UHGV virus genome: UHGV-0077154
DNA from: a virus
DNA length: 13,459 nucleotides
Reading direction: 5' to 3' (one strand)
The first letter of the stretch is position 1. Every line of letters begins with the position of its first letter. The notes beneath the pieces were generated by a model, which was not told where the DNA came from, did not search any database, and saw nothing but the letters and a program-made list of their open reading frames with translations. The position numbers and the translations under genes were made by a program. This document shows, piece after piece, positions 1 to 13,459 of this stretch.

Positions 1-54
1 GAACGAGAGCTTCCCAAGCTCTATACGAGGGTTCGATTCCCTTCGCCCGCTCCA
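1..54 (+). tRNA. glyU: 3' portion of tRNA-Gly (anticodon CCC), truncated by the window edge; also the tRNA side of attL
   Basis: GAACGAGAGCTTCCCAAGCTCTATACGAGGGTTCGATTCCCTTCGCCCGCTCCA matches my memory of the 3' two-thirds of E. coli glyU. Anticodon stem AGAGC/GCTCT with loop TTCCCAA (anticodon CCC at 13-15), T-arm GGTTCGATTCC, encoded CCA ending at 54. The 5' part lies outside the window. Confidence 0.9.
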
Positions 55-61
55 GTCTCCT
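2..61. repeat. attL copy of the direct repeat (tRNA-Gly 3' end plus 7 nt downstream)
   Basis: Identical to 13376-13435. Similarity continues for 24 more nt with 3 mismatches (62-85 vs 13436-13459). Base 1 (g) continues the authentic tRNA body (..TAGAACGAG). Confidence 0.9.
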
Positions 62-621
62 GATAAATCAACAAGTTATGATTTATCAGTTAGTTACGTT
101 GCCCCGCTTTAGCAGGTACAACTTAAACTACCCATTGTTCTACGCCCGCACCTGTCGCGTGATTGGTCTGTGGTACAAGGGAGCATATCATCACGCTGGC
201 GGTGGTTCCAAGTTCTTACCGCGACAGTACAACAACGAACAAAAAGCCGCATACCTGGCATAACTCCCGAACTGATTGATCACACGCATTTAAGCCCGAT
301 GTGTGGCCCTATGAGCCACGTAAACAGGTGAATAGTGGTAATGCCCCGGTAGCTACAGATCCGGCTCTGCCAGCGCTTCGCTCACGCTCCGAAAGGTACA
401 CGAGCACCCTGATAAGGTGTGATCCATCTGACAATCTGATGATGTCGCTACGCTCCGCTTGTTGCTTGTACCACTAACGGGGCTTTATGGTTTCTATTGA
501 CTTAAATTAGATAGTTGCAAGGAAATAAACTAAGGATAATTTAAGTGTTGAGCGGTTTACTCATACTGCTTGAGGGCAGTATCATTACAACATTAATGGG
601 ATTTTTAAGGGACTGATGTGA

Positions 622-1257
622 ATGGCTGAGTATCATCCTGCGGTATTTAATGCTGAGGCTTTTAACTGTCCTTACTGCGGTGTATATGCCCGTCAGTTCT
701 GGCGCAATTTGTTTGGTAGCGGAAATGCGTTGGCAACTGTTGCGACTGCGTTCCGTATGTCAACATGTTCTCATTGTGATGAAGATTCTTATTGGTATGA
801 GGGCAATATGATGGTCCCTGCTGCTGGAAATGTGGAACTACCTAGTCCTGACATGCCTGAAGACTGCAAGTTCGACTATATGGAAGCAAGAAGCATCGTT
901 AATCTGTCCCCTAAAGGTGCTGCTGCACTCCTTCGCCTGAGTCTGCAAAAACTGATGGTCCACCTTGGCGAACCGGGTAAACATATTGACACGGACATAA
1001 AATCTCTCGTGGCTAAAGGCTTGTCTCCGTTGGTCCAAAGAGCCGCAGATATTTGTCGCATTGTCGGTAATCAGGCTGTTCACCCCGGAGAAATTAATCT
1101 TGATGATGACCCGCAATTAGCACATGGCCTCTTCAAATTACTGAATATTATTGTCACGGAACAAATTACCAGACCCAAAGAGGTTGAAAAGATGTTCAAT
1201 AGTATGCCTGAAAGGGCGTTGAAGGGTATTGAAAACAGAGATAAACCTAAAACTTAA
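622..1257 (+). CDS. Zn-ribbon + DUF4145-like (HEPN-related?) protein, 211 aa; candidate defence/abortive-infection cargo
   Basis: ATG at 622 is preceded by AAGGGA (607-612). The N-terminus has paired CxxC motifs (CPYC...CSHC). The C-terminal helical region [11 protein letters not shown]...IKSLVAKG...[16 protein letters not shown] fits the DUF4145 signature (R..GN.A.H) as I remember it. A possible promoter is TTGCAA (515-520), 16-bp spacer, TAATTT (537-542). Confidence 0.7.
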
Positions 1258-1261
1258 ACTG

Positions 1262-1277
1262 AGGGGCTTAAGCCCCT
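1262..1277. terminator. Perfect 16-bp palindrome AGGGGCTTAAGCCCCT between convergent genes (possible bidirectional terminator)
   Basis: GC-rich hairpin lying between the stop of 622-1257 (+) and the stop of 1283-2101 (-). The flanking T/A runs are short (TTTA downstream), so strength is uncertain. Confidence 0.45.
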
Positions 1278-1282
1278 TTAGA

Positions 1283-2101
1283 TTATTCAGAAAACCAAAT
1301 TTCTGGCCGTCTAAACTCCTTATTCTCAATAAAAAACAGAATATCTTTCCAGGCTTCTTCATTTTCTTCCCAGAATTTTTGTTTTTCATTCATTGTAAGG
1401 ACTTTACTATCATCTATTAACTTCTTGAGAATAGCAGGGATATCTTTATAGGGTTTTTTCCAGAAGGCATTACGTAATTCTTCAATTTCTGCATTTGCAT
1501 CCCGAACGGGTTTTAGAAGTTCAAGCTGTTTTTCTGTATCGGTAATAGGTTTATTTCCAACCCACTGATGATAGATTTTGCTAGCTTCTTCATGATGACC
1601 CCGAAGAATTGTTATTATTGTTTTTGAGAGTAACGAGCACATGTCAAAAGTAGTAAAGTAAAACCAATCGTGTTTGATTGCGGTTAATTCATCTTTTTTA
1701 ACCCCTATTTGTTCAAGTTCACTCGAAATTGAAGATACTAATTTATAAAGATCTTTGTTTGATGTTGCTGTATCTAGGCGTCCGGTTCTGGAGGCTAATG
1801 AAATAGCTACTTCAGAAATAGGTAAGGAAACTTTTCTTAAACTATCTAAAACTTTTTCAGCATCGTTAATAGTATCTCTTAATTTTGCCTCCATGCCTAA
1901 GAGCTTTATTTCATGCCATTCAAATTGAGTAAGTACCATCAACCCGAAGCCTGTTACAATGACAACAGTCCCTTCAGTTGCTCCTATTGTCAGAGTTACA
2001 ATTACACCAGCGCCTATAAGTAGCAATGCAATGAAAAACAAAAAATTCTTTATCCATTTATTTTTTAGCATATCACTGTCACCATTACGATTAAATTTCA
2101 T
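1283..2101 (-). CDS. AT-rich membrane protein, 272 aa, two N-terminal TM helices plus a helical cytoplasmic domain; function unknown
   Basis: Long uninterrupted ORF in very AT-rich DNA (19 G+C in the 60 nt at 1381-1440). Hydrophobic segments are FLFFIALLLIGAGVIVTLTIGA and VVIVTGFGLMVLTQF, and the remainder is charged and helical. The start is uncertain (ATG 2101 has no clear SD; the internal Met at codon 11 follows GGTGA). Confidence 0.75.
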   Translation of the reverse strand: MKFNRNGDSDMLKNKWIKNFLFFIALLLIGAGVIVTLTIGATEGTVVIVTGFGLMVLTQFEWHEIKLLGMEAKLRDTINDAEKVLDSLRKVSLPISEVAISLASRTGRLDTATSNKDLYKLVSSISSELEQIGVKKDELTAIKHDWFYFTTFDMCSLLSKTIITILRGHHEEASKIYHQWVGNKPITDTEKQLELLKPVRDANAEIEELRNAFWKKPYKDIPAILKKLIDDSKVLTMNEKQKFWEENEEAWKDILFFIENKEFRRPEIWFSE

Positions 2102-2124
2102 CCAATATGAAGTAAAGTAAGTAA

Positions 2125-2334
2125 CTATTTTTCGTTCTCTGATGCCTCAAACGTCTTGGAGTGAGGGCAGGACTGGGAGCGCGTCACCAGCGTGAACAGA
2201 TAAATGTTGCTTTCGTAAGTGCAAAGCCGTTTTCCGCCCTGTAACTCTTGTTCGTCGGGGTTGCTCATGGTGATTTTTCCTGCATGAGCCGCCAGCGGCA
2301 GCAGTGCCACAACAAATAGTAAAATTTTCTTCAT
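2125..2334 (-). CDS. Small secreted protein (about 69 aa) with a Sec signal peptide
   Basis: MKKILLFVVALLPLAAHA/GK is a classic n-h-c signal peptide with an AxA cleavage motif, and the mature part has two Cys. The ORF track starts at GTG 2340; I prefer ATG 2334. It lies 23 nt upstream of, and co-oriented with, the 272-aa gene. Confidence 0.55.
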   Translation of the reverse strand: MKKILLFVVALLPLAAHAGKITMSNPDEQELQGGKRLCTYESNIYLFTLVTRSQSCPHSKTFEASENEK

Positions 2335-3325
2335 TTCCACAACCTGCCCCGTAGGTGTCCCGGCTCTTTATCCTCCAAGTTTACATTCTCCTGTTGAAAA
2401 TATCCCCGGCTCTGTTGGTGATCTGCTAGACCGTCAGCCCAGGCCCTCGGTGAAAAGCGCTTTTCTTCGCCAAATATCGCTACGTTATGCCTTCAGCGAC
2501 ACGCCTCACTGCAACAAGCAGTGCAGTTACACAATGCTGCTTTGGGCTGAGGCAAGGGAGATAACTTGATGTTTTGAAGTGCCTCTGTTCACTAATTGTA
2601 CAACCATTTAACATATTGTATCTTATAAGTACTTGACTGGAATGGTCAGGTATTGCTTTTCGGAGCGTTGATGCGAAGCGGAGTACACAACAACGATTTG
2701 ATCAACAGAAGGAAAGCATTCGGGAGGATTTGAGGTGAGTTCTCTTGTTCAAGGATTTTGGATGAGTTTGTCCGGTCACCACACAATTTCAGGTTTCAGG
2801 CCTTTGAAGCTGCCAGCGCATCTAACACGATGAAAGAGCATTTTTCTCTTTATCAGCAGAAAAAGAGCTACTACGGCGACGTTACCACAACGGGGTGAAG
2901 AACTATCGTCACCTGGCGAAATTCTCCCGCCCTTGCAGGTCACGGATACGTACCTTTTCCCGCACCAGCGCAAGCCTTCTCACCAATAGCCCCGTATGCT
3001 CCACCAGAAGCGCTACAGCGCGTCATCTCCACACAATTGTAAACTACACACCCATAGCACAGCGCCCCGCTGAGAAGCTCTGACACGCCCAGAAATGGAT
3101 GGTTTTTCGTTGATTTTGCGAAGAAAATTAATTTTTTCGGTATGGAAGGGCGGATCGGTAAACTGGTTTGACACGCATTTGGTTGACATATTTAACGCAT
3201 CCAGCCCCTGCGCGGGTTCGTTGTGTATCCGATACCATAACGATCACCACACCACACAGGCGAGCCAGTGACAACAGACAGGATTTTCTAGCAATTAACC
3301 GCAATTAACAGGTATTAAAGCTCTA

Positions 3326-3697
3326 TTATTTCCCGCCGAAAATCCAACCGATGATGGCACCGATTATCGCAGAGCGGGTCTCACCTGCTGCTCCTTTGAG
3401 AACGTTAATAACTGCATCGCCTGCACCAGGTGCCTGCTGTTGAAGTAAATTCAAACCACGAGGTGTTAACTTGGCGGCGGTATCCATGTCGGTTGAAGAG
3501 ATTATCTCCGTGTAACCCATATCGCTGAGAGCCTGGAGTGTGTTGCAAAGCAGGTCAATCTGAGTTCTGTCTCCTCTGGGCTTCCAGCCGAAGTCTGAAA
3601 ATTCGAAAGAAGAGTAAGCCGGATAGTCCGCAAACAGTTTCACCAGGATTCCAGTTGCCATCTCGTTAAAGCTGTCTTTGCCTTGGACGAATTCCAT
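3326..3697 (-). CDS. 123-aa protein with a C-terminal hydrophobic Gly/Ile-rich anchor; transcribed divergently from the control region
   Basis: ATG at 3697 has an AGGA SD 6 nt upstream (minus-strand AAAAGGAAACATT-ATG). The composition looks protein-like. The C-terminus SAIIGAIIGWIFGGK looks like a tail anchor or glycine-zipper helix. Confidence 0.7.
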   Translation of the reverse strand: MEFVQGKDSFNEMATGILVKLFADYPAYSSFEFSDFGWKPRGDRTQIDLLCNTLQALSDMGYTEIISSTDMDTAAKLTPRGLNLLQQQAPGAGDAVINVLKGAAGETRSAIIGAIIGWIFGGK

Positions 3698-3820
3698 AAT
3701 GTTTCCTTTTGTTCACTGATTGAACGAGGTTACTTACTTACCGCTGGAAGTGCCAGCAAGAAGGGATGACGCTGTGCTGTTAATCACTAGGTGAGGGGGT
3801 GTCTTCTACCAGAGGGGAGG

Positions 3821-3915
3821 CCATTGGTAAAGAATCTTAACTAACGTTAGTAAAGATCCTTAACCAGCCATTAGTAAAGAATCTTAACTAACCATTGGTA
3901 AAGATACTTAACCGT
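3821..3915. repeat. Four tandem ~23-24 bp iterons (CCATTGGTAAAGAATCTTAACTAA-type)
   Basis: Copies start at 3821, 3845, 3868 and 3892: ccattggtaaagaatcttaactaa / cgttagtaaagatccttaaccag / ccattagtaaagaatcttaactaa / ccattggtaaagatacttaaccgt. They are contiguous with no spacers. Confidence 0.85.
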
Positions 3916-3917
3916 AC

Positions 3918-3959
3918 TATATCACTTACTAGATCATCTTTAGATCACTGCCTATATCA
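3918..3959. repeat. Four helically phased heptamers TATATCA / TAGATCA / TAGATCA / TATATCA
   Basis: Heptamers start at 3918, 3930, 3941 and 3953 (spacing 12, 11, 12 bp), immediately after the iterons. The two inner copies contain GATC. Confidence 0.6.
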
Positions 3960-4130
3960 GTAAAAACATTAAGGTCAAAGACAGATTGAACATGCGTTCA
4001 ATTGTTGGAGTTGTTAGGTGTTATGTAGACAGGCTTCGCCTGTTTACACTCTGTGTGGAAGACAAGCGCAAGCGCGTCAGTCCAATGTGGATCGAGCACG
4101 GCGCAGAGGAGCTTTAAACGCGACGTAACT

Positions 4131-4160
4131 CCCCCCTTGGAGGGGCGGCGCACCCCCCTC
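4131..4160. promoter_or_regulatory. GC-rich dyad with a lambda-cosN-like core (candidate cos/packaging site)
   Basis: GGGCGGCGCACC (4143-4154) compared with the lambda cohesive end GGGCGGCGACCT recalled from memory: the first 8 nt are identical and the rest aligns with a 1-nt indel. It is flanked by the inverted hexamers GAGGGG (4140-4145) and CCCCTC (4155-4160), and it is intergenic. An 8-mer match alone is near chance level. Confidence 0.3.
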
Positions 4161-4296
4161 AACCCTGCGCTCTAACAACATCTCTAGAGTCCTCTATCGC
4201 GTTCTGAGCGTCTTTCTCTTATTGTTGGTGACTTTGTACCGTTCCGCTTACAGCGTTGAATCTGAAGCGTCTGAGAGCGTTTTGTGATTACGGGGC

Positions 4297-4410
4297 TTGA
4301 CAAAGAAAATGTATGTGTATAAGGTTGCGGGGTATTGACACAAAACATTTATATCTCTTTATTCATTAAATGAGTTATCGGTTGACAAAGAAACTAATTT
4401 ACTATAAAAT
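4297..4410 (+). promoter_or_regulatory. Three tandem consensus -35 boxes/promoters upstream of the rightward operon
   Basis: TTGACA occurs at 4297-4302 (15-bp spacer, then TATAAG 4318-4323), at 4335-4340 (weak -10 TTTATT 4358-4363) and at 4382-4387 (17-bp spacer, then TAAAAT 4405-4410). The first and third share TTGACAAAGAAA. Confidence 0.55.
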
Positions 4411-4468
4411 ATATATTATCAAATGAGATGATTTTATGACTAAACAATAACTTAAATAGGAGAGATAC

Positions 4469-4897
4469 ATGGGGAAACCTGTTCTGTTCGATTTCTCGAG
4501 CGCCACTGCCTCAGAGATTGTCGCTGCAATCGATGCAAAAATTACCACAGCTCAAAATCTGCACGCCTTCCGCACTCGTATGGGTGGTGCCAAGAAAGCC
4601 GATAAGCTCTATCCAGCTACTCGCGAAGCACTGAACATCATTAAACGCCTGCGTCAGCAAGCGAAAGACGCAAAAATCATCCGGGATATTCTTAAACCGT
4701 ACTCAGCAGAGTTGGCAAAAGGCCGTGATGTTATGGAAATCATTGAACCAGTGCTGTCTGCCTGGCGTGTCTATTACGCCTCTCATGGCATTGGTTTGAT
4801 GAATGAGCAGATCCTCCTGTTGAAAATGATTGAGGCGGGCGGTGAACTCGAAGGTATTACCGGAAAACCCATTCCCGAACTGACCACAACCGAATAA
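4469..4897 (+). CDS. 142-aa helical protein of unknown function; first gene downstream of the triple promoter
   Basis: AGGAGA SD (4458-4463) lies 5 nt before the ATG. The composition is clean and protein-like. I recognise no motif. Confidence 0.8.
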   Translation: MGKPVLFDFSSATASEIVAAIDAKITTAQNLHAFRTRMGGAKKADKLYPATREALNIIKRLRQQAKDAKIIRDILKPYSAELAKGRDVMEIIEPVLSAWRVYYASHGIGLMNEQILLLKMIEAGGELEGITGKPIPELTTTE

Positions 4898-5078
4898 CCA
4901 TTCTCTTCTTTACGGTGCGAAGCACTTTACCAGAGGTAAACACCTCCGGTGCTATTAGCTTTACTCTGTTGGCAGCAACGCCACCAAACGAAATCGCCGT
5001 AAACACGGCTCCTTACCCCTGATCAATTCCATGATCGCAGGGGCGCACCCGCATATCTAACGCACAGGAGAGATGATT

Positions 5079-5264
5079 GTGAAACTGTCACTAGACGATG
5101 AAACATATGCAATTTTACGCGAAGAATCTGACCGTTTGGGGATGCCAGTTCCGAGGATGATCCGGAACATGTGCCAGAACCTGGCGAAACACATTCAGAA
5201 ACGCAATGAACAACCACTGACGAACCCACAGGGAGAACAACATGACAGAGACAGTAGAAGCTAA
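5079..5264 (+). CDS. Ribbon-helix-helix (CopG/Arc-type) DNA-binding protein, about 61 aa
   Basis: KLSLDDETYAILREESDRLGMPVPRMIRNMCQNLAKHI fits beta-strand/helix/helix RHH architecture. AGGAG (5066-5070) is 8 nt from GTG 5079 but only 2 nt from the ATG 5073 used by the ORF track. The 3' end overlaps the next gene by 23 nt. Confidence 0.65.
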   Translation: MKLSLDDETYAILREESDRLGMPVPRMIRNMCQNLAKHIQKRNEQPLTNPQGEQHDRDSRS

Positions 5265-5886
5265 TCTGCCAGACGAACAGGACGGCACTTTTGATCGCAA
5301 TTATACCGAGATTAAGCGCTTGAAAGTGTTGGTTGCCGACGATGGAACTAAAATTCCGTTCAGCGCGAACATGAAAGTAGTCTACGCCTACCTCTACACC
5401 TTCCAGACAAATAAAGAGCGGCGGAACTACCCTGAGCCAATTTATCCTAATATGGAAATAATCGCGTGGGAAAATGGCATTACTAAACCCACGGCGCAAA
5501 AGGCTGTGGATGATTTGATGCGGGCGGGGGTGTTGATTAAGGACCAAATTCAGGTTGGGAGCGGGTTTAAGTCCAACAATTACGTTGTGTTGAAACCCTC
5601 GAAAGTGGTGGCGCGTGGCGTCACTCCACCGCATCCAAATGCTTCTAAATATTCAACTGCCGAGGAGAGCGGTAAGAATGAACAAAAACGTGCTGTGGTG
5701 GAACCTGCCGCGCCTGTTGCTGGAAAACCAGACGGCATACCTGTTGTGGATATTCCTGTCGATGCTGATGTACCTGCCGATGATGATGCGGTGATCGGAG
5801 ACTTTAGTGATCCTTACCTTGATGCTGAAGTAAAAGAATGGCAGAAACAAAAACATAGTGGAGGATTGAATTGTGTGAACACGTAA
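5242..5886 (+). CDS. Winged-helix DNA-binding protein with an acidic/proline-rich C-terminal tail, 214 aa (possible origin-binding/initiator or regulator)
   Basis: GGGAG SD (5231-5235). The core VVYAYLYTF...MEIIAWENGITKPTAQKAVDDLMRAGVLIK looks like a wHTH of the plasmid/phage Rep-type helix-turn-helix family. The C-terminus PVVDIPVDADVPADDDAVIGDF looks disordered. Confidence 0.75.
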   Translation: MTETVEANLPDEQDGTFDRNYTEIKRLKVLVADDGTKIPFSANMKVVYAYLYTFQTNKERRNYPEPIYPNMEIIAWENGITKPTAQKAVDDLMRAGVLIKDQIQVGSGFKSNNYVVLKPSKVVARGVTPPHPNASKYSTAEESGKNEQKRAVVEPAAPVAGKPDGIPVVDIPVDADVPADDDAVIGDFSDPYLDAEVKEWQKQKHSGGLNCVNT

Positions 5887-6347
5887 GCGTTGAACTGACC
5901 GCAGATGAAGAACAAAAGCTATCTCGCCTTTTCTCCGTCCTGGAGAAACCGACATATAAATCCCGATCCAAACCTTCCGATCCGGAAACACAACGCAAAG
6001 CCCGTTTATTGCTTAATCGTGGATTTTCACCGCATATTGTCGCTAATACCCTAGATCTGCCGTTCGCTGAAGTCTGGCGGCTCGCACGTCAAAAACAAGC
6101 GGTGACCTGGGCGATGATGACACCGACAGCCCGGACAGAATTTGTCCGTGAAATGTGGTCACATCGGATGCACCCGGAACAGATCCGCAAGCGTTGCGAT
6201 GGTCTGTCATACGTCAGTCTGAGATATTACCTGCATAACGCCGGGATCACTGACGCTGAAATGTTGGGTTACTACCCAGACGTGTTCGTGAATATCTGCA
6301 AGCTGCCGACAGTGAAGAAGAAGCGCACTAAGTGTAAGGCCCGTTAG
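5871..6347 (+). CDS. 158-aa protein with two HTH-like segments and a basic C-terminus (regulator or packaging-specificity factor?)
   Basis: TTG start has a GGAGGA SD (5860-5865) 5 nt upstream and overlaps the previous gene by 16 nt. Candidate HTH segments are GFSPHIVANTLDLPFAEVWRLARQ and MHPEQIRKRCDGLSYVSLRYYLHNAG. The tail is KKKRTKCKAR. Confidence 0.7.
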   Translation: MCEHVSVELTADEEQKLSRLFSVLEKPTYKSRSKPSDPETQRKARLLLNRGFSPHIVANTLDLPFAEVWRLARQKQAVTWAMMTPTARTEFVREMWSHRMHPEQIRKRCDGLSYVSLRYYLHNAGITDAEMLGYYPDVFVNICKLPTVKKKRTKCKAR

Positions 6348-6414
6348 GGTGAACGTTAACGTTCATCACTTTGTGACCGGATCGCCAATCCAAATAATCC
6401 CACATCGGGAGCCA

Positions 6415-6531
6415 ATGAACTTTGAAGCAATCCTTTCTTACCTGCCCGTTGTCTGGCTGGCGTATCGCTGCGTCCGTGATGGGCTGATCCTACTTTGGAG
6501 ACACCATAAAAATGACATTGAACAGCATTAA
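6415..6531 (+). CDS. Possible 38-aa single-TM peptide (uncertain)
   Basis: Internal ATG 6415 follows GGGAG (6407-6411). The product MNFEAILSYLPVVWLAYRCVRDGLILLW is hydrophobic. It fills the gap between two coupled genes and overlaps the next start by 20 nt. The track's longer GTG-6349 version has no SD. Confidence 0.3.
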   Translation: MNFEAILSYLPVVWLAYRCVRDGLILLWRHHKNDIEQH

Positions 6532-6892
6532 AAATGCTCTGTTTGCCGCTATGCACGGCATGACACCGGAGGAATACGAACTCCAAAAGGCGCGGGACAA
6601 TCTCAAGAGCGTCACCGATAACTTTCTGGATCAACATCCGGAGTTGCTCAAATCAGCCTCGTCTGACACCCCCACGGATAAACGGGGCGAAGCCCTCTCG
6701 CCAATGCGAGACACCTTTGGTGCTGAACAACGGATTAAAAAATCTTTGGGCGCTGATAGCCGTCCGGCGGTAAGTCATACCGCTGATCACATCGATCCTG
6801 AAATGCTGGCGAAAGCTAAAGCAGCGGCTGCTGCTCTCGCAAAATCTGACCCTGATCGTTACGGCAATATCATCAAGCAGCAGGGGGTGTGA
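6512..6892 (+). CDS. 126-aa acidic/Ala-rich protein of unknown function, translationally coupled to the 715-aa gene
   Basis: GGAGA (6497-6501) lies upstream of the ATG. The stop TGA (6890-6892) overlaps the ATG at 6892 (TGATG). The sequence looks largely helical or disordered. Confidence 0.7.
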   Translation: MTLNSIKNALFAAMHGMTPEEYELQKARDNLKSVTDNFLDQHPELLKSASSDTPTDKRGEALSPMRDTFGAEQRIKKSLGADSRPAVSHTADHIDPEMLAKAKAAAAALAKSDPDRYGNIIKQQGV

Positions 6893-9036
6893 TGGCGAAT
6901 GGCAATATCATAGTGACTGAAACCGTAAACGAGGTGACATGGTCTGTCGATCGGACAGCCTTCGGTCGCGCCCTGAAAGCTGTTAAATCCATCAAGGCTG
7001 CTCATGAGAAACCAGCTAAGGCGCTTGAGAAGGCCCAGAAGCGGACCGTCCAGAGTGAAGGCAAAGCCGCACTAGCAGCAGCGAAAGCCCAGACAGCGAA
7101 GCTACGCCAGGCTGAACAATTGTCTAAACAGCAACAGAAACAAGCTCAGATACAAGCCAAAATGGAGCGGGACGCAGTAGCCCACGCCAATAAAATGACC
7201 TCATTACAGGCGCGTCAGTTATCCCAACAGGAACAGGCAGCACGTCAGAATGCCCGTTTAGCAGCAATATCTGAAAAGGTGAGACAGGCGAGTCGCTCCC
7301 GCGCGATGACCTACACCCCAAACATGGGCGGTCAACATTACGATCCTGGTCTTGTTTCCCGTCAGACTGACGCAATGAACCGTGGTCACGGCGCTGTTGC
7401 TGCCGACATCGCAGCCACCAAAAAGGCGATGGCCCTGGAGGAGAAGCGCCAGCGTGAGAAAGAGGCAGGACTTAAGCGTGAGGTGACTTATTACAACAGT
7501 TTGCGCCGTAGCGCTTTGACTCTGGCAAACGTGAACGGCGCTGACGTTGCAACCCGTTATAAAGCGATCAGTGCAGCAAAAGAGGCACTCAAAGCCCAGA
7601 AAGAAGAGCGTTATACGGTCGAAGAGACCCGTTTCGAAATGGCCCGTATCACTACAGAATTACGCAAGCAGGCTCGTCTGCAACAACGTATTACCCGTGA
7701 GCAGAAAGCCGCAGGTGTTCGTGCTGGTCGTGTACGCACAGAAAGCCGTGGTGGAAGTGTAGGTCTGGCTGCCGCTGGTGTTGTTGGTGGTGCGGCGTTA
7801 GTAGGTAGTATGGGCGTTTCTCGTGTTGGTCAGACCCTTCAGGGAAGCCTTGAGCGTTCTCGCGATGTGAAAAAACTCCAGCAGTATGGGATCAGCAACC
7901 TTGAGTTCGCAGCACTTCAGGATCTATCAATGAGCCGTGTTGGTTACTCACTGAGTGCTGACAAGCTGGCTGACCTCAACAAGGACACAACCGAAAAGGC
8001 CGGGGAATTGCTGAATACTGGCTCTTTCAAACGTAACAAGAAAACTGGACAGGTGAATTTCAGCGGCGGTGGTGAGTTTGCAGATATCATCAATAACGTA
8101 CTGACCTCCACCAACGGCAACCAGAAGGTAGCCCAAAAGGTGATCGGGGAACTGCAAAAACTGGATTTTCCAACATTTATCACTTATCTAAAGCAATTAC
8201 AGAAAACTTTCGGCTGGACTGATCGACAGGTGCGACACCTGGCCGAGGCTGTGAATGATGGTTCGGTCTTCCTCGAAGTGTTCAATGATGAGGGGCAGGG
8301 ACTTATCCAGCGTATGAATCAACTCGCTTCTGAAGGATGGACCCTATCTGATGCACAGCAGGCCAACCTTGATAAGCTGGCAGCTTTGGGTGCTGAGTAC
8401 AGTCGCGTGCAGATGTCGCTTGCTGACCACTTCAGCGCCAGCTTCGTGCAGGGTCTGGGAGAATATGCAGCTAATACTGACACTCTACGTCAGAAGATGA
8501 CTGGACTGATCCCAATTTCCGATGCTCTCGGCGTTGCCCTTGGTGAGCTAACCACCAACATTCTCTCCTTCGCTGGTCGAGTCGGTGAAGAACTCAAGAA
8601 AGGCGCGACACTGCCGGATGCAGTCTACAACACCGTAGTGGATGACTCTGCAAATAGCACCGCCGATTGGATTAAGGAAAAGACCGGATTTGATCCACGC
8701 AGCATCGGTCAGACGCTCAAACAGATTTACCCGTGGCTGGATAGTTTCGCTCCGAGCAATATCGGCTCAGGCACGGCGTATAACGATCCAGCGCTAGCGT
8801 TGAATGTTCCTGGTTTCAACTCAATACAACCCCAGCAACCAACGTTTACGATTCCGACAATTGACAGCATGACGCAGCGACAGCCGATTCCTGTTGCGGT
8901 CACTGGCGAAGCTGAGATTAAACTCTCACCGCTTGATATTAACGTGAATGACGGCGCTATTAACGGTTTGATTGATACAAAACTGAGGAGCTATGAGCAG
9001 GCACAGAACAACATGATCCTTGGTATTGCTCAATGA
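6892..9036 (+). CDS. 715-aa coiled-coil + glycine-zipper TM + tape-measure-like domain protein
   Basis: Roughly residues 30-290 are Q/A/K/R-rich heptad-like sequence. GGSVGLAAAGVVGGAALVGSMGV is a Gly-zipper hydrophobic segment. The next ~200 aa (LADLNKDTTEKAGELLNTGS...GGGEFADIINNV...LKQLQKTFGWTDRQVRHLAEAVNDGSVFLEVFNDEGQGL...LSDAQQANLDKL) resemble the conserved core of phage tail tape-measure proteins as I recall it. Confidence 0.8.
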   Translation: MANGNIIVTETVNEVTWSVDRTAFGRALKAVKSIKAAHEKPAKALEKAQKRTVQSEGKAALAAAKAQTAKLRQAEQLSKQQQKQAQIQAKMERDAVAHANKMTSLQARQLSQQEQAARQNARLAAISEKVRQASRSRAMTYTPNMGGQHYDPGLVSRQTDAMNRGHGAVAADIAATKKAMALEEKRQREKEAGLKREVTYYNSLRRSALTLANVNGADVATRYKAISAAKEALKAQKEERYTVEETRFEMARITTELRKQARLQQRITREQKAAGVRAGRVRTESRGGSVGLAAAGVVGGAALVGSMGVSRVGQTLQGSLERSRDVKKLQQYGISNLEFAALQDLSMSRVGYSLSADKLADLNKDTTEKAGELLNTGSFKRNKKTGQVNFSGGGEFADIINNVLTSTNGNQKVAQKVIGELQKLDFPTFITYLKQLQKTFGWTDRQVRHLAEAVNDGSVFLEVFNDEGQGLIQRMNQLASEGWTLSDAQQANLDKLAALGAEYSRVQMSLADHFSASFVQGLGEYAANTDTLRQKMTGLIPISDALGVALGELTTNILSFAGRVGEELKKGATLPDAVYNTVVDDSANSTADWIKEKTGFDPRSIGQTLKQIYPWLDSFAPSNIGSGTAYNDPALALNVPGFNSIQPQQPTFTIPTIDSMTQRQPIPVAVTGEAEIKLSPLDINVNDGAINGLIDTKLRSYEQAQNNMILGIAQ

Positions 9037-9132
9037 TGAAACAGAGGGTGGCGAATTCGTCGCCCCTATCTCAACACCACAATGCGTATGTATCAAATTT
9101 AGCGACAAATCAAATACTTTTCGTGAAATTTG

Positions 9133-9161
9133 TTGTAAATGATAATCATTCGTGTTAAAAT
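9133..9161 (+). promoter_or_regulatory. Candidate sigma70 promoter with extended -10, heading the capsid-gene leader
   Basis: -35 TTGTAA (9133-9138), 17-bp spacer, TGTTAAAAT (9153-9161; TGn + TAAAAT), inside an AT-rich stretch just after the 715-aa gene. Confidence 0.45.
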
Positions 9162-9511
9162 AATATACAAGGTGAATTACAACAGCCAAATGTTTTTCCC
9201 TTCTCCTTAGGAATCAAAGTGCGCTTTTCCCAGAGCGCCTTTTCTCATACAGCCAATATCCGCACCCTCTCACGGTAAGGTTAGGCCATTGCCGCTGGCT
9301 GTATCAGAAAAGCATCGCAGAGCGATTAGCCAGCAGGCTAACCCGTTCTCGTGTGTAGAAAATTTCCACCTAAGGTGGATTTGCCAAAAGTCCTGTCCTC
9401 CTCGGCGGGCTGTCAGCCGGACACTAACGGCATCAGGTGGCAACGTTTTTGGGTCTCCTTACCCATTCTTTGGAGCGTTGCCGCCTCCTCATTCCTACCA
9501 GTGAAATTCAC

Positions 9512-9542
9512 ACCGGACGACTCTCCGTCCGGTCACTTTTTT
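9512..9542 (+). terminator. Intrinsic terminator candidate t1 in the capsid leader
   Basis: Stem ACCGGACG (9512-9519) pairs with CGTCCGGT (9526-9533), loop ACTCTC. CAC follows, then a T6 run (9537-9542). Confidence 0.5.
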
Positions 9543-9557
9543 CATCGGAACAATTCT

Positions 9558-9610
9558 AAAGGCTGGCCCTGTCGCCGTTTACGGCTCAAGCAGGCGCTGG
9601 CCTTTTGTTT
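9558..9610 (+). terminator. Intrinsic terminator candidate t2 (long GC-rich compound hairpin + U-run) just before the capsid-gene RBS
   Basis: 9561-9571 pairs with 9591-9602 (one bulge, two G-U pairs), with an inner hairpin GCCG-TTTA-CGGC (9574-9585). AAA (9558-9560) can pair with the following T-run, and TTTTGTTT lies at 9603-9610. Confidence 0.55.
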
Positions 9611-9645
9611 ACATAGCTATGTGAAATTTAACGGGAGTTAATTAT

Positions 9646-9987
9646 ATGAAAATGGGAAGCCTTGAGCGCTCTTACAATGACGTGATCGCGTATGCAGCCG
9701 ATCCGAATTTTGACCGCAAGACTATTACTGTCGATCTAGCTGTAGAAGTCCAGCCGGGTAGTTGCATTACCAGCACTGGAGCTGCTTATGTCTCTGGTGA
9801 TGACTGCCTGCTGGTCCTGAGCCACCACAGGGCCGAAGATGCTGCTCATATCATCGTTGCTGATCGCGGGATTTACATCAAACAAGACACCATCACCGCT
9901 GTTATGGGCGCTACCGCTGGCGCTAATGCTATTGCCGCACTCACCAAAACGGGCGCAATCCGTACTAGCGCACCGGACGCAGAATAA
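9646..9987 (+). CDS. Head decoration protein, lambda gpD-like, 113 aa
   Basis: GGGAG SD (9633-9637) is 8 nt from the ATG. Size, position immediately upstream of the gpE-like gene, and the pattern ...GDDCLLVLSHHRAEDAAHIIVADRGIYIKQDTI...TGAIRTS parallel lambda gpD (...[31 protein letters not shown]...GTAISIV, from memory). Confidence 0.6.
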   Translation: MKMGSLERSYNDVIAYAADPNFDRKTITVDLAVEVQPGSCITSTGAAYVSGDDCLLVLSHHRAEDAAHIIVADRGIYIKQDTITAVMGATAGANAIAALTKTGAIRTSAPDAE

Positions 9988-10005
9988 TAATAAGGAGAAG
10001 ACAAC

Positions 10006-11040
10006 ATGGGACTATCAACCAATTTCAGCTACGCGGATTACACCAACACCTTTGTGAACATGGATGCAAAGAACACTTTGCTGTCCACGCTTAATGTTTT
10101 CAGTGATCGTCAGACTTCTGCAAGTCCGAAGGTGAGCCTCGATATCATTGATGAAGTCGCTCAGAAGGTGGCAAGCTCTGTTAATCGTTACGGTTCAGAG
10201 TGGTCAACCATTCCTAAGCGTAGCGCTAGCAATCACCTGATTGAAGCTCCACTTTATGCTTTTCAAGACCGGATTACAGCGGCAGACGTGCAACCATATC
10301 GCAAACCAGGCTCCGACCTGCAAATGTCTGTAATGGATGCGGTCACTTCTTCTGCTGTCGCAATGCACGATAAGTACATGCGTACTAAAGAGAAAATTTT
10401 CGCTGACGCACTCTTCCGAAATACTGTCGAAGCGACCTACACCCAGCAGCCGATCATTTCCTGGGAAGATGAATTTGGATACCAACAGGCAACCGGAACG
10501 ATCAAAACCAGCGTTAGCTCTGGTGACCCACTTCGCAGCCTCGATGATGCAGTAACCGCTGCTAAAGTGCGCATGGGGGGCCTGGCTGGTCAGCTTGATG
10601 GATTTATCCTGTTTGCAGGTAGCAATGTTTATCGCGGCATTAAGTATCACCCTGATGTTCGTCAGAATGTTCAGTTCGGTGTGCTTGATCGGGATGTTCT
10701 GTTTAATAAAGAAGTGCTTCCGGCATTCTCAACATTCATCATTGAAAATGTTCGAGTGGTGGAGGTCACGGATCAGGCACTTTACGGAATTGGTCCGGAT
10801 GAATCCTTCCTGGTTCCACGTTTCAGCCGCCCACTGTCCTCTGATATTGCTCTACCTTTCGGTTATGTAGCAACGGCTACCAGCCGCAATCTTGATCTGG
10901 CATTTGCTGATCCGGTTGATTTCCGTATCTGGAGCGTACAGGACAAGTTTAAGAACGTGGAGCTATTCGCGGAAAGCTCAATCTTGCCTGTGGTGTACCG
11001 TCCGGATTTCGTTACAAAACTGACGAACGACGCAGCGTAA
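10006..11040 (+). CDS. Major capsid protein, lambda gpE family-like, 344 aa
   Basis: AAGGAGAA SD. The length is close to lambda gpE (341 aa). It sits directly after a D-like gene. The C-terminal ...ESSILPVVYRPDFVTKL resembles gpE ...SAPLMLLADPDEFVSVQL (from memory). Confidence 0.75.
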   Translation: MGLSTNFSYADYTNTFVNMDAKNTLLSTLNVFSDRQTSASPKVSLDIIDEVAQKVASSVNRYGSEWSTIPKRSASNHLIEAPLYAFQDRITAADVQPYRKPGSDLQMSVMDAVTSSAVAMHDKYMRTKEKIFADALFRNTVEATYTQQPIISWEDEFGYQQATGTIKTSVSSGDPLRSLDDAVTAAKVRMGGLAGQLDGFILFAGSNVYRGIKYHPDVRQNVQFGVLDRDVLFNKEVLPAFSTFIIENVRVVEVTDQALYGIGPDESFLVPRFSRPLSSDIALPFGYVATATSRNLDLAFADPVDFRIWSVQDKFKNVELFAESSILPVVYRPDFVTKLTNDAA

Positions 11041-11121
11041 GACAGCGGATTTTGGGGCTGACTATTTGGCCCCACCGTGAAGAATGGCCTGAAAAGGCGA
11101 GGCAAAGAAGAGGTGATTACT

Positions 11122-11325
11122 ATGAAAATTCAATTTCAGACTAACAACGGCTTCCCGTTGCTGACAGTTGCAGACGAGCGCGTTTTAGATTTTCTGAACG
11201 TTAGCGCAGTGTGTCGGTTCCTGAAGGTTCCGCGTTCCTCGTTCATGATGGACGTTGAGCAATACGGGCTTGAAAAGGCAATCAGTGAAGCCCTGCTGAA
11301 GTTAAGAAAGAATAAAAATTGTTAA
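11122..11325 (+). CDS. 67-aa HTH protein (AlpA/excisionase-like DNA-binding protein?)
   Basis: ATG 11122 follows GAGGTG (11110-11115). LNVSAVCRFLKVPRSSFMMDVEQYG resembles the MerR-type/excisionase HTH pattern. The upstream GTG-11077 extension in the track lacks an SD. Confidence 0.55.
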   Translation: MKIQFQTNNGFPLLTVADERVLDFLNVSAVCRFLKVPRSSFMMDVEQYGLEKAISEALLKLRKNKNC

Positions 11326-11386
11326 TAATCAATCTGTTGGTATTTGTTGTCAAAAGAATCATTGTGTTTGTTTTTCGCGCATTTAC

Positions 11387-11415
11387 TTGACACTATGATG
11401 CAGATTGCGTAGGCT
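11387..11415 (+). promoter_or_regulatory. Candidate promoter of the two-gene cassette
   Basis: TTGACA (11387-11392), 17-bp spacer, TAGGCT (11410-11415). Confidence 0.4.
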
Positions 11416-11509
11416 GAACATAAAATAATTGACTATTCTATATTCAAACCGGACTTCAACTTGAGAATGCTTCGTTCCTACATCTCCCTTCAAGGGGTAG
11501 GAGGATTAT

Positions 11510-11719
11510 ATGAACTTTGATATGCGTACAAACCAAAATTGTGCATCTTTTTTTAACCCAGCAACCAAGGCGTTTGTCGTCGTCGATTCGTTTGACAACT
11601 ACGAGTTCGATGTTCGTGCTGGTACTTTATCACGCACTGAATTTGTAGGCACAATCACAGCTTCGAACGATGAAGAGTTGAACAAGAAATTAGCTGAGAT
11701 CACGGCTGCTCATATATGA
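11510..11719 (+). CDS. 69-aa protein, first gene of an overlapping pair (unknown; antitoxin-like position)
   Basis: Strong AGGAGG SD (11499-11504) lies 5 nt before the ATG. The stop overlaps the next start (ATGA at 11716-11719). The gene is AT-rich. Confidence 0.7.
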   Translation: MNFDMRTNQNCASFFNPATKAFVVVDSFDNYEFDVRAGTLSRTEFVGTITASNDEELNKKLAEITAAHI

Positions 11720-12090
11720 TAACTCAACAGCAAATTGATGATTTAGTTGCAGATATTAACGATATCTTAGAAGAAGATAGAGCTAGACTGAAGATGTCAT
11801 TTCATTTTGCTGTTGATAGACTCAATGATCAGCGTAACAAACCTCCAATCACGCTAGATGAATTGAGAGTGATTTTTACAAATTTCATTGAACAACACTT
11901 GCAGACCATTTTAGGCAAAGATGAGGGGTTCTCCTTCACTATTAAGTGCCAGAAATCAGGTATTGCTATACCTTGCGCCATAGAGCATGAACTTGAGATT
12001 GGTGCAACGTGGGTAGTACAGCAAGTGATCACCATCATGCGGAATCCGAACTTTAACCCATACCATGGTGATGTCATCTTCGAAATCTAA
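11716..12090 (+). CDS. 124-aa protein, second gene of the overlapping pair (unknown; toxin/effector-like position)
   Basis: Translationally coupled by the ATGA overlap and followed directly by a strong terminator. I recognise no motif. Confidence 0.7.
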   Translation: MITQQQIDDLVADINDILEEDRARLKMSFHFAVDRLNDQRNKPPITLDELRVIFTNFIEQHLQTILGKDEGFSFTIKCQKSGIAIPCAIEHELEIGATWVVQQVITIMRNPNFNPYHGDVIFEI

Positions 12091-12092
12091 GT

Positions 12093-12118
12093 AAAAAGGC
12101 GCAATAGCGCCTTTTTTT
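12093..12118. terminator. Bidirectional intrinsic terminator shared by the cassette and int
   Basis: AAAAA-GGCGC-AATA-GCGCC-TTTTTTT: a 5-bp GC stem (12098-12102 / 12107-12111) flanked by an A5 run and a T7 run. The int stop codon (12117-12119) lies in the T-run. Confidence 0.8.
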
Positions 12119-13313
12119 ACAAATCCGGATAACACGCCAACTCGACATACTCCGATAGTTCCTTCATCCCTGGCCCTTTGCTGTAGGTTCTGAATGCTTC
12201 GGTTTTCGCTTTTTGTTCGGTATGTCCAGTGATGGCTCCGATCCGTTGTTCTGGCACCCCTGCACGGTCTAAGCAGGTGATGAACATTCCCCGTAAGCTG
12301 TGAAAACATTGCCGATCTGTAGCGGTTGGCAATGTGCTGTCACGTAGCCGGGTAAACTTTTGGCTGTACCACGGACCCCGCTTACCATCCTTCCGAATGA
12401 TGTTATTAGACTGAGCCAGAAGATATTCACCGCTGTTATTTGCCAGATGCTTATCAACAATCCCCATCAGCAGCGAGTGGATCGGAACATACCGCACCCC
12501 GGCTACAGTCTTGGACTTGCTGACAAAGAAACATCTGACACCCTCCAACATTACAATTTCATCCCGCTTGATGCTGGCGATCTCATCAAGTCGCATTCCT
12601 GAATACAGCCCAATCAGTATGACATCGCGTAGAACGTCATCCGCTTCTCTGACAAGTGTTTGCAATTGTTCAGGTTCAAACGGCTGATAACTTTCTATCG
12701 TGCGACGTGCTTCGAGGTTATGACCGTGAAACGGGTTACTGTCGGGGATTGCGTCATATCGACGTTTGGCGAACTCGTACAGACTCCCTAAAGAGGTTAG
12801 CCAGTTTTGCACGGTCTGCGGTGCTGCCTTTTTCTGTTGGCCTTCAATGAAGTCTGTAACCGTTCTGCGTCCTATCTTGTTCAGACTAATATCAACTTTA
12901 CCGATACTCTGGAGAAATACTTCCACCGCTCGCGCGGATTTGCTGAGTGTGGAAAATGCCCGACGTTCACTATAAACCGTCATGTATTCATCACGGATGA
13001 CTGCCAACGTTGGGATAGGGGAGACTGCTACAGGCGTACTCTTGGCCTGTTTGATTGTGGTGTGGAGTGTGGTGATCGCATTCTGGATGCGAATGTCTTC
13101 CCGATCAGGATTCAACAGGGCTTTCAGATTGTTGAACTCAATCAACATGTGATTTCTGAAGTGACGAGCCTTAAGGATGTCTTTTGTCCCGGTGGATTTT
13201 CGCCAGGCTCGTTTGTTGTCAAACAGGTGACGCATGTACGCAGGTACAAAGACCTGAAAGATCCATACGCCCGAATGACTTTGAAAAAGATACTGATTGT
13301 TCTTGATAGACAT
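12117..13313 (-). CDS. int: Tyrosine recombinase / phage-type integrase, 398 aa
   Basis: Catalytic signature visible: ...YSGMRLDEI (Arg), HSLRGMF (His-x-x-Arg), ITGHTE (His), FRTYSKG (Tyr). It sits next to attR with its 5' end facing the tRNA-derived repeat. Confidence 0.95.
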   Translation of the reverse strand: MSIKNNQYLFQSHSGVWIFQVFVPAYMRHLFDNKRAWRKSTGTKDILKARHFRNHMLIEFNNLKALLNPDREDIRIQNAITTLHTTIKQAKSTPVAVSPIPTLAVIRDEYMTVYSERRAFSTLSKSARAVEVFLQSIGKVDISLNKIGRRTVTDFIEGQQKKAAPQTVQNWLTSLGSLYEFAKRRYDAIPDSNPFHGHNLEARRTIESYQPFEPEQLQTLVREADDVLRDVILIGLYSGMRLDEIASIKRDEIVMLEGVRCFFVSKSKTVAGVRYVPIHSLLMGIVDKHLANNSGEYLLAQSNNIIRKDGKRGPWYSQKFTRLRDSTLPTATDRQCFHSLRGMFITCLDRAGVPEQRIGAITGHTEQKAKTEAFRTYSKGPGMKELSEYVELACYPDL

Positions 13314-13375
13314 GATTTCGATCCTCTAAAATCACGCCATCAGGTACAGCCATATGTACAATGTCGGGATGGAGT

Positions 13376-13435
13376 AACGAGAGCTTCCCAAGCTCTATAC
13401 GAGGGTTCGATTCCCTTCGCCCGCTCCAGTCTCCT
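13376..13435. repeat. attR copy of the direct repeat: displaced 3' fragment of tRNA-Gly (13376-13428) plus 7 nt; not a functional tRNA
   Basis: Identical to 2-61. The sequence upstream (..GGGATGGAGT) diverges from the tRNA body (..AATGGTAG), so the acceptor 5' strand and D-arm are missing. Confidence 0.9.
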
Positions 13436-13459
13436 CATAAATTAACAAGTTATAATTTA

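Follow-up and report, generated by a model that had tools for sequence, protein, structure and literature searches.

What is encoded at positions 622–1257 (+ strand) of the virus genome UHGV-0077154, and what does the gene do for the DNA that carries it? We analysed a stretch of 13,459 nucleotides of this genome, referred to as the window. A sequence-only reading of the window had proposed that this gene, here called razr, is a candidate anti-phage or helper-interference effector carried as cargo at the end of a mobile element. Our comparisons indicate that it is very probably a member of the RAZR (PD-T7-4) family, i.e., a stand-alone, single-protein abortive-infection defence system, with a mechanism assigned through homology to the Escherichia coli protein RAZR-Ec.

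The check with defence annotators that the sequence-only reading had suggested gives a full-length match. The PADLOC PD-T7-4 model (PDLC04109) aligns residues 1–209 of the window protein to positions 1–209 of a 211-position profile (E=4e-98, 325 bits). The sole relative in the Protein Data Bank (PDB) is RAZR-Ec (PDB 9Y9C, deposited under the title ‘DUF4145 domain-containing protein’), to which the window protein is colinear over residues 1–208 (E=1.9e-111). The two proteins are 76.4% identical over 208 residues without a gap and share the same residue numbering. By domain, the identity is 70.8% in the zinc-finger domain (ZFD), 92.9% in the interdomain linker (13 of 14 residues), and 77.5% in the HEPN domain. 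The homologue is a proven anti-phage abortive-infection RNase. PD-T7-4 was discovered by functional selection in E. coli (Vassallo et al. 2022, PMC9519451) and renamed RAZR, for ring-activated zinc-finger RNase (Zhang et al., Nature 2026, PMC13017515). The family comprises 1015 clusters (90% identity) at E<=1e-10. The system is thus already named, its structure is solved, its mechanism is known, and standard defence annotators already name the window gene. The window razr adds no new mechanistic insight; what changes here is the annotation, from ‘DUF4145 domain-containing protein’ to RAZR/PD-T7-4, an anti-phage abortive-infection RNase.

The open reading frame (ORF) starts with ATG and encodes 211 amino acids followed by a stop codon. 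Alignment to RAZR-Ec places the ZFD at residues 1–65 (622–816, + strand), a domain with a trigger-sensing and specificity role in RAZR (PMC13017515), and the linker at residues 66–79 (817–858, + strand), with the AGN motif at residues 68–70. Residues 80–211 (859–1254, + strand) form the DUF4145/HEPN RNase domain, as judged from Pfam PF13643 and residue comparison. The predicted four-Cys ribbon is present: CPYC supplies C16 and C19 (nucleotides 667–678), and CSHC supplies C49 and C52 (nucleotides 766–777). The predicted DUF4145 signature is borne out by a Pfam search, in which PF13643 matches residues 88–163 with E=3.9e-13 and 49.7 bits against a cutoff of 23.1, far above chance. A search of the window protein against NCBIfam models returns no match. 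DUF4145 is a HEPN family with known fusions to zinc ribbons, restriction endonucleases, and AbiJ-NTD (Anantharaman 2013, PMC3710099), in agreement with the grouping and the fusions to restriction or abortive-infection proteins named in the sequence-only reading. Pfam clan CL0291 holds both DUF4145 and the HEPN family. The R..GN..H motif singled out from the letters contains the two published catalytic residues, R146 (nucleotides 1057–1059) and H154 (nucleotides 1081–1083).

The mechanism has been worked out for RAZR-Ec (PMC13017515). RAZR-Ec alone is non-toxic and forms oligomers. Its ZFDs attach to the outer face of phage-protein rings ~170 Å wide, namely the portals of T3, T7, and SECphi18 and the 24-meric Erf-like Gp77 of SECphi27. 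RAZR-Ec assembles on the ring as a polymer of 24 protomers, by which pairs of HEPN domains are activated, as seen by cryo-EM (PDB 9Y9C), and the activated protein cuts single-stranded RNA (tRNA, rRNA, and mRNA) non-specifically, so that translation halts and infection aborts. R146A, H154A, deletion of AGN, and mutations of the interfaces all abolish defence, and the AGN deletion also abolishes ring assembly (PMC13017515).

By homology, the same mechanism is expected for the window protein, with different triggers. The window RAZR would be produced constitutively and would be harmless as linear oligomers. On infection, its Cys4 ZFDs would bind the outside of a ring of ~170 Å, formed by a portal dodecamer or by an Erf-like recombinase, and the protein would polymerise around it as a 24-mer. 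The curvature of the ring would shift the paired DUF4145/HEPN domains such that R146 and H154 build active RNase sites. Non-specific cleavage of tRNA, rRNA, and mRNA would then stop translation, and phage spread would fail.

The catalytic and zinc-binding residues on which this mechanism depends are conserved. In an alignment of 120 proteins (RAZR-Ec and its 119 best-listed homologues, each of at least 200 aa), C16, C19, C49, C52, R146, N150, and H154 are invariant. The predicted oligomerisation residues of the window protein include T179, E180, and R184. At the dimer–dimer interface V21 and R184 are kept, and residues 179/180 are T/E in the window versus D/D in RAZR-Ec; T179 occurs in 49 and E180 in 55 of the 120 homologues, i.e., both are frequent family variants. 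No other part of the alignment is nearly as variable as the ZFD, which has a mean top-residue frequency of 0.556 versus 0.909 for the HEPN core. This fits the published statement that the ZFD is the variable domain of RAZR and sets phage specificity (PMC13017515). The ratio of non-synonymous to synonymous change, omega, is 0.10 overall, 0.03 in the HEPN core, and 0.24 in the ZFD, indicating purifying selection that is most relaxed in the ZFD.

These data also bear on whether razr is a decaying passenger with no present function. Decay does occur elsewhere in the family: the homologue in Shimwellia pseudoproteus (L004, 10001–10628) is split over two frames, with residues 1–120 at 59% and residues 116–207 at 93% identity to the window protein; the split marks a frameshifted pseudogene or else an error in sequencing. 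In the window, however, the frame is intact, the catalytic and zinc-binding residues and, at the oligomer interface, V21 and R184 are conserved, with common family variants at 179/180, omega is 0.10, and an identical protein is kept in several species. Relic status is rejected on the intact frame, the conserved residues, and the omega value, and we regard it as vanishingly improbable.

Three observations weigh against the assignment to RAZR and its known mechanism. First, the catalytic spacing of the window protein, R146-x7-H154 (RIVGNQAVH), falls outside the canonical HEPN motif Rx4-6H; RAZR-Ec has the same R-x7-H spacing and has been described as a divergent HEPN protein (PMC13017515). Second, all five positions that contact the trigger differ, being R29, Y31, R35, T41, and E43 in RAZR-Ec versus N29, F31, N35, A41, and A43 in the window. 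Because all five contact residues are changed, a different trigger set is expected for the window RAZR, and the window allele probably recognises a different set of phage rings than the alleles studied so far. Third, the only σ70-like site upstream of the gene, the promoter-like TTTACT-18-TATCAT (556–585, + strand; 9/12 matches), is indistinguishable from background, with 3 such sites found versus 5.2 expected in shuffled sequence.

The claim that razr has its own promoter is accordingly weak, given the 9/12 score of that site and a site frequency not above that of shuffles. RAZR-Ec and RAZR-Kv (the latter from K. variicola) are active as single genes with ~200 bp of native upstream DNA (PMC13017515), and the upstream region of the window, 362–621, is 96–98% identical in an element of E. 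coli 2016C-3878 (L006). By sequence reading, a Shine–Dalgarno-like AAGGGA (607–612, + strand) lies 9 nt before the ATG. Downstream, the gap between razr and the convergent gene orf272 holds a GC-rich hairpin (1259–1281), a possible bidirectional terminator with weak U-tracts. The palindrome itself, AGGGGC-TTAA-GCCCCT (1262–1277), is real (−12.7 kcal/mol, z=−2.67), as had been noticed. Its reading as a terminator is weak, since a terminator scan did not call the hairpin at 1262–1277 and its U-tract is poor.

The position of the gene at one end of a mobile element is confirmed. The window is one integrated 13.4-kb capsid-encoding element at tRNA-Gly(CCC). It is bounded by an 84-nt direct repeat (family D1), the copies of which are 96% identical, with the first 60 nt exact: one at 2–85 (+ strand), which is the 3′ part of tRNA-Gly(CCC), the tRNA ending at ~54, and one found by direct-repeat search at 13376–13459 (+ strand), a partial copy of the tRNA on the integrase side. 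Rfam matches a tRNA at 1–51 with its 5′ end cut, and the intact tRNA gene on the left is visible in a related contig (L012); ARAGORN did not detect the truncated tRNA at the window start. A tyrosine integrase (12117–13313, − strand; Pfam Phage_integrase and DUF6538, PHROG integrase) occupies the opposite end, and razr lies ~560 nt from the integrase-distal repeat, adjoining one att end in a slot of variable cargo. The earlier wording ‘attL-proximal’ therefore holds as to the end of the element; ‘attL’ itself is only a label, and razr lies towards the tRNA gene and away from int.

Comparison of the same slot across relatives shows the cargo swapping that the sequence-only reading had anticipated. 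We fetched relatives through the core gene orf142 and the capsid gene, independently of razr, and obtained about ten distinct element variants from Enterobacter, Klebsiella, Citrobacter, Phytobacter, and others, integrated at tRNA-Gly, tRNA-Thr (by proA), and other sites. None of them carries razr in the visible slot. Instead, the slot holds arsH-arsR-arsB-arsC (L025, L027, L029), an unrelated 211-aa transmembrane protein (L023, L024), a DUF4062 gene with a tRNA_anti-like gene (L034–L036), an HTH/Peptidase_M78 gene and others (L038), a resolvase with a YopA_M-like gene (L026, L028), or small ORFs only (L030–L033). Within the element family, razr is found only together with the window-type left arm, namely in the window, in 22 of 5426 complete E. 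coli genomes (at tRNA-Thr), and in L043 and L044.

An identical protein is encoded on 23 contigs, which their sources list under K. michiganensis, K. pneumoniae, or a multispecies Enterobacteriaceae entry. We examined ten places, and each of them carries the same element; in nine of these the flank is chromosomal and has a LysM/M23 gene. The tenth (L019), a metagenome contig, has a second integrative element upstream (1–7200), with an integrase 69% identical to that of the window, Dit_like and EAL genes, and a 115-aa ORF followed by a 345-aa ORF without a Pfam match, which matches the arrangement of the 113-aa ORF and the capsid gene in the window. L019 looks like a tandem array of two neighbouring elements; the contig excludes the tRNA site.

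Homologues of razr also occupy unrelated contexts. Five (L002, L003, L004, L007, and L010) overlap the 3′ end of an integrase gene of ~535 aa, in line with the report that PD-T7-4 genes often overlap the integrase gene (Vassallo et al., PMC9519451). Seven temperate Streptococcus phages carry homologues of 32–36% identity, and an 11.5-kb filamentous (Tubulavirales) Vibrio prophage (L045, PQ189324.1) carries one of 44% identity at 9123–9788, labelled ‘PD-T7-4’ in GenBank. RAZR is thus cargo of very different mobile elements. At least four unrelated neighbourhoods harbour homologues, and no neighbouring gene is common to them, consistent with operation as a single gene. Because other cargo fills the slot in relatives and razr occurs in unrelated contexts, razr is mobile, variable accessory cargo. 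Together, the PADLOC match, the homology to RAZR-Ec, the conserved motif, and the variable slot uphold the earlier proposal of an anti-phage effector.

The immediate neighbour of razr raises the question of whether the two genes form a module, for example one in which RAZR is a toxin and orf272 either its antitoxin or a partner in the membrane, or one that keeps the element stable by addiction. The co-cargo gene orf272 (1283–2101, − strand) encodes a helical protein with an N-terminal transmembrane segment and has no match in Pfam, PADLOC, PHROGs, or NCBIfam. The genes are adjacent and convergent, share the terminal hairpin, and recur as a pair in a third context (L043 and L044), with copies 78% and 74% identical; orf272 also has a foreign GC content of 35%. 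However, plasmid-borne RAZR-Ec defends without a partner and is non-toxic by itself, most RAZR homologues have no orf272 nearby, and orf272 homologues occur without razr in L039–L042, those in L039–L041 being placed at the other cargo hotspot of a related element. In addition, recombination has replaced razr and spared orf272 (synonymous divergence, dS, of 1.13 versus 0.03 relative to the E. coli element L006). razr and orf272 are separable. A toxin–antitoxin or addiction role with orf272 is rejected on this separability and on the single-gene activity of RAZR-Ec, and a two-gene module appears very improbable.

A different role would follow if the element turned RAZR on its own helper phage, through the portal ring, to cut helper output to its own benefit. 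The carrier is satellite-like: it has genes for an integrase, a replication-initiator-like protein (PHROG), and a lambda-E-type major capsid protein (Phage_cap_E, E=4.6e-14). Scans of the window ORFs with Pfam and PHROG recognise no portal, terminase, protease, connector, tail, or lysis gene. As no portal gene is recognised in the element, a helper portal would be needed, and portals are proven RAZR triggers (PMC13017515). Against this, the non-specific RNA decay and translation stop caused by active RAZR would also block packaging of the element, razr is missing from most relatives of the element, and it is common in unrelated, non-satellite contexts. Its rarity in element relatives, together with its frequency in non-satellite contexts, argues that razr is not part of the element life cycle. 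We therefore consider helper interference distinctly improbable, and favour general anti-phage defence by RAZR.

How the window came by its allele is visible from the comparison with L006. The two elements are 96–100% identical at 362–640 and 1162–2660, and only 62–84% identical at 640–1160 (+ strand), a divergence island delimited by windows of nucleotide identity and by dS. For razr as a whole dS is 1.13, with 2.9 for codons 66–180 and 0.06 for codons 181–211; it is 0.16 for orf142 and 0.23 for the capsid gene. A ~40-fold excess of silent divergence limited to codons 1–180 indicates that these codons were replaced by recombination with a distant allele, and did not arise by fast local evolution. 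The HEPN core of the window protein is 92–95% identical to the L002 and L010 alleles, the ZFDs of which are only 52–54% identical to it, and the C-terminal tail differs from that of L006 at 1 of 31 residues. By these comparisons the window RAZR protein is a mosaic.

Two near-identical elements that differ almost only in the sensor and core region of razr are a natural experiment, and offer a ready allele pair for studies of specificity. The allele swap agrees with the published finding that the ZFD sets phage range. It may be that replacement was selected so that the window allele ignores the portal ring of the helper yet fires on the portals or recombinase rings of competitors, an idea we hold to be unlikely. 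If true, RAZR specificity would be shaped by satellite–helper compatibility, and allele swaps would retune which helper phages are permissible.

The same pair of elements differs elsewhere. The window is 84–99% identical to L006 over most of 264–11434. At 62–263 and 11434–13459 the att-adjacent arm is unrelated, the integrases are 40% identical, and the integration sites differ, being tRNA-Gly(CCC) for the window and tRNA-Thr by proA for L006; by these comparisons the integrase module has been swapped between the two. A stretch without a long ORF (2660–3350; described in our analysis as roughly 1 kb) is 51–86% identical to L006, versus 95–99% in its flanks. At this position many relatives have a short (183–227 aa) Phage_integrase-domain gene, no remnant of which is found in the window by tblastn. 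A 715-aa ORF (6889–9036, + strand), coiled-coil rich, has weak N-terminal matches to PHROG ‘tape measure’ families (best E=3e-17) and none in Pfam. It is 67% identical to the L006 copy, versus 95–99% for its neighbours, and roughly half of the related elements lack it.

The carrier belongs to a widespread family of enterobacterial integrative elements of 11–14 kb (the window, L006, L008, and L022–L038). The common genes are integrase, orf142, a DUF6945-like replication gene, a 113-aa ORF, and the lambda-E-type capsid gene. The 113-aa ORF is followed by the 344-aa capsid gene, which is the gene order of lambda D–E; the 113-aa protein has no family match. Between orf123 and orf142 lie four iteron-like 26-nt repeats (3820–3916; reference GCCATTGGTAAAGAATCTTAACTAAC, the others 69–96% identical), spaced 23–24 nt and overlapping a palindrome, a candidate replication origin or operator.

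The interval from the capsid gene to int (window 11100–12100) is a second cargo hotspot. In the window it holds the overlapping orf69 and orf124 (39–41% GC; PHROGs 14630 and 14518, of unknown function), and in relatives (L023, L030, L032, L035, L006, and L022) DarT and NADAR (DarTG), GNAT, YafO toxin, DUF2188, or an orf272 homologue. The family thus has two cargo hotspots, with RAZR, DarTG, ars genes, and others.

Among the 17 main ORFs, Pfam and PHROG find no P4-like psu, delta, sid, or alpha primase–helicase. From the set that defines capsid-forming phage-inducible chromosomal islands (cf-PICIs), i.e., portal, protease, head–tail connectors, and TerS, none is matched by the same scans, and only Phage_cap_E is recognised. 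The label ‘satellite-like’ appears reasonable for this gene content; membership of a known satellite class is unsupported. The gene content of the family fits none of P4-like elements, PICIs, cf-PICIs, and PLEs. A whole-window megablast against a phage collection matched only the tRNA fragment, and our literature search on the carrier family found nothing relevant. We considered a 12,982-nt Logan contig (L036) as a circular or excised copy and rejected it. Its ends do not overlap, and a chromosomal copy matches it at 100% identity; it is therefore not evidence of excision. The family, which does not fit the satellite classes established so far, may merit a study of its own.

The slot resembles the P4 and P2 defence hotspots (Rousset 2022, as described in PMC9519451) and PICI cargo sites, in that the same end-proximal position is variable among syntenic elements. 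The carrier differs in lacking P4-like or cf-PICI hallmark genes recognisable by Pfam and PHROG, and in that its slot also holds a non-defence ars operon.

With the canonical HEPN RNase toxins and Abi proteins (HEPN-MNT, AbiJ-type, and RNase L; PMC3710099), RAZR shares the helical fold, the Arg/His pair, the cross-dimer active site, and abortive infection. It differs in having no antitoxin or MNT partner and in the R-x7-H motif in place of Rx4-6H. Canonical HEPN toxins are activated by simple dimerisation or antitoxin release, whereas RAZR is activated by higher-order oligomerisation templated by a ring. DS-38, a validated defence protein (DefensePredictor preprint, 10.1101/2025.01.08.631726), likewise combines a zinc finger with HEPN; according to that work only its HEPN aligns with PD-T7-4 and the zinc fingers differ, whereas the window protein is PD-T7-4 proper.

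Within the family, RAZR-Kv (PMC13017515) is an enterobacterial allele ~78% identical to RAZR-Ec, the divergent ZFD of which shifts phage range. The window allele, from Klebsiella and related genera, lies at a similar distance from RAZR-Ec. The one K. variicola homologue that we retrieved (P0183) shares 73.9% identity with the window protein and 84% with RAZR-Ec, and is probably not RAZR-Kv. PD-T7-4 genes have been reported often to overlap an integrase gene (PMC9519451), whereas the window razr is at the integrase-distal end of a capsid-encoding element. RAZR-Ec itself (PD-T7-4 of E. coli UMB1727; PMC9519451, PMC13017515) has a C-terminal tail of the 219-aa type, in contrast to the 211-aa type of the window. 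It has the same Cys4 ZFD, AGN 68–70 linker, and R146/H154 HEPN register, and is likewise a single gene, carried by a mobile element close to an att site at tRNA-Gly.
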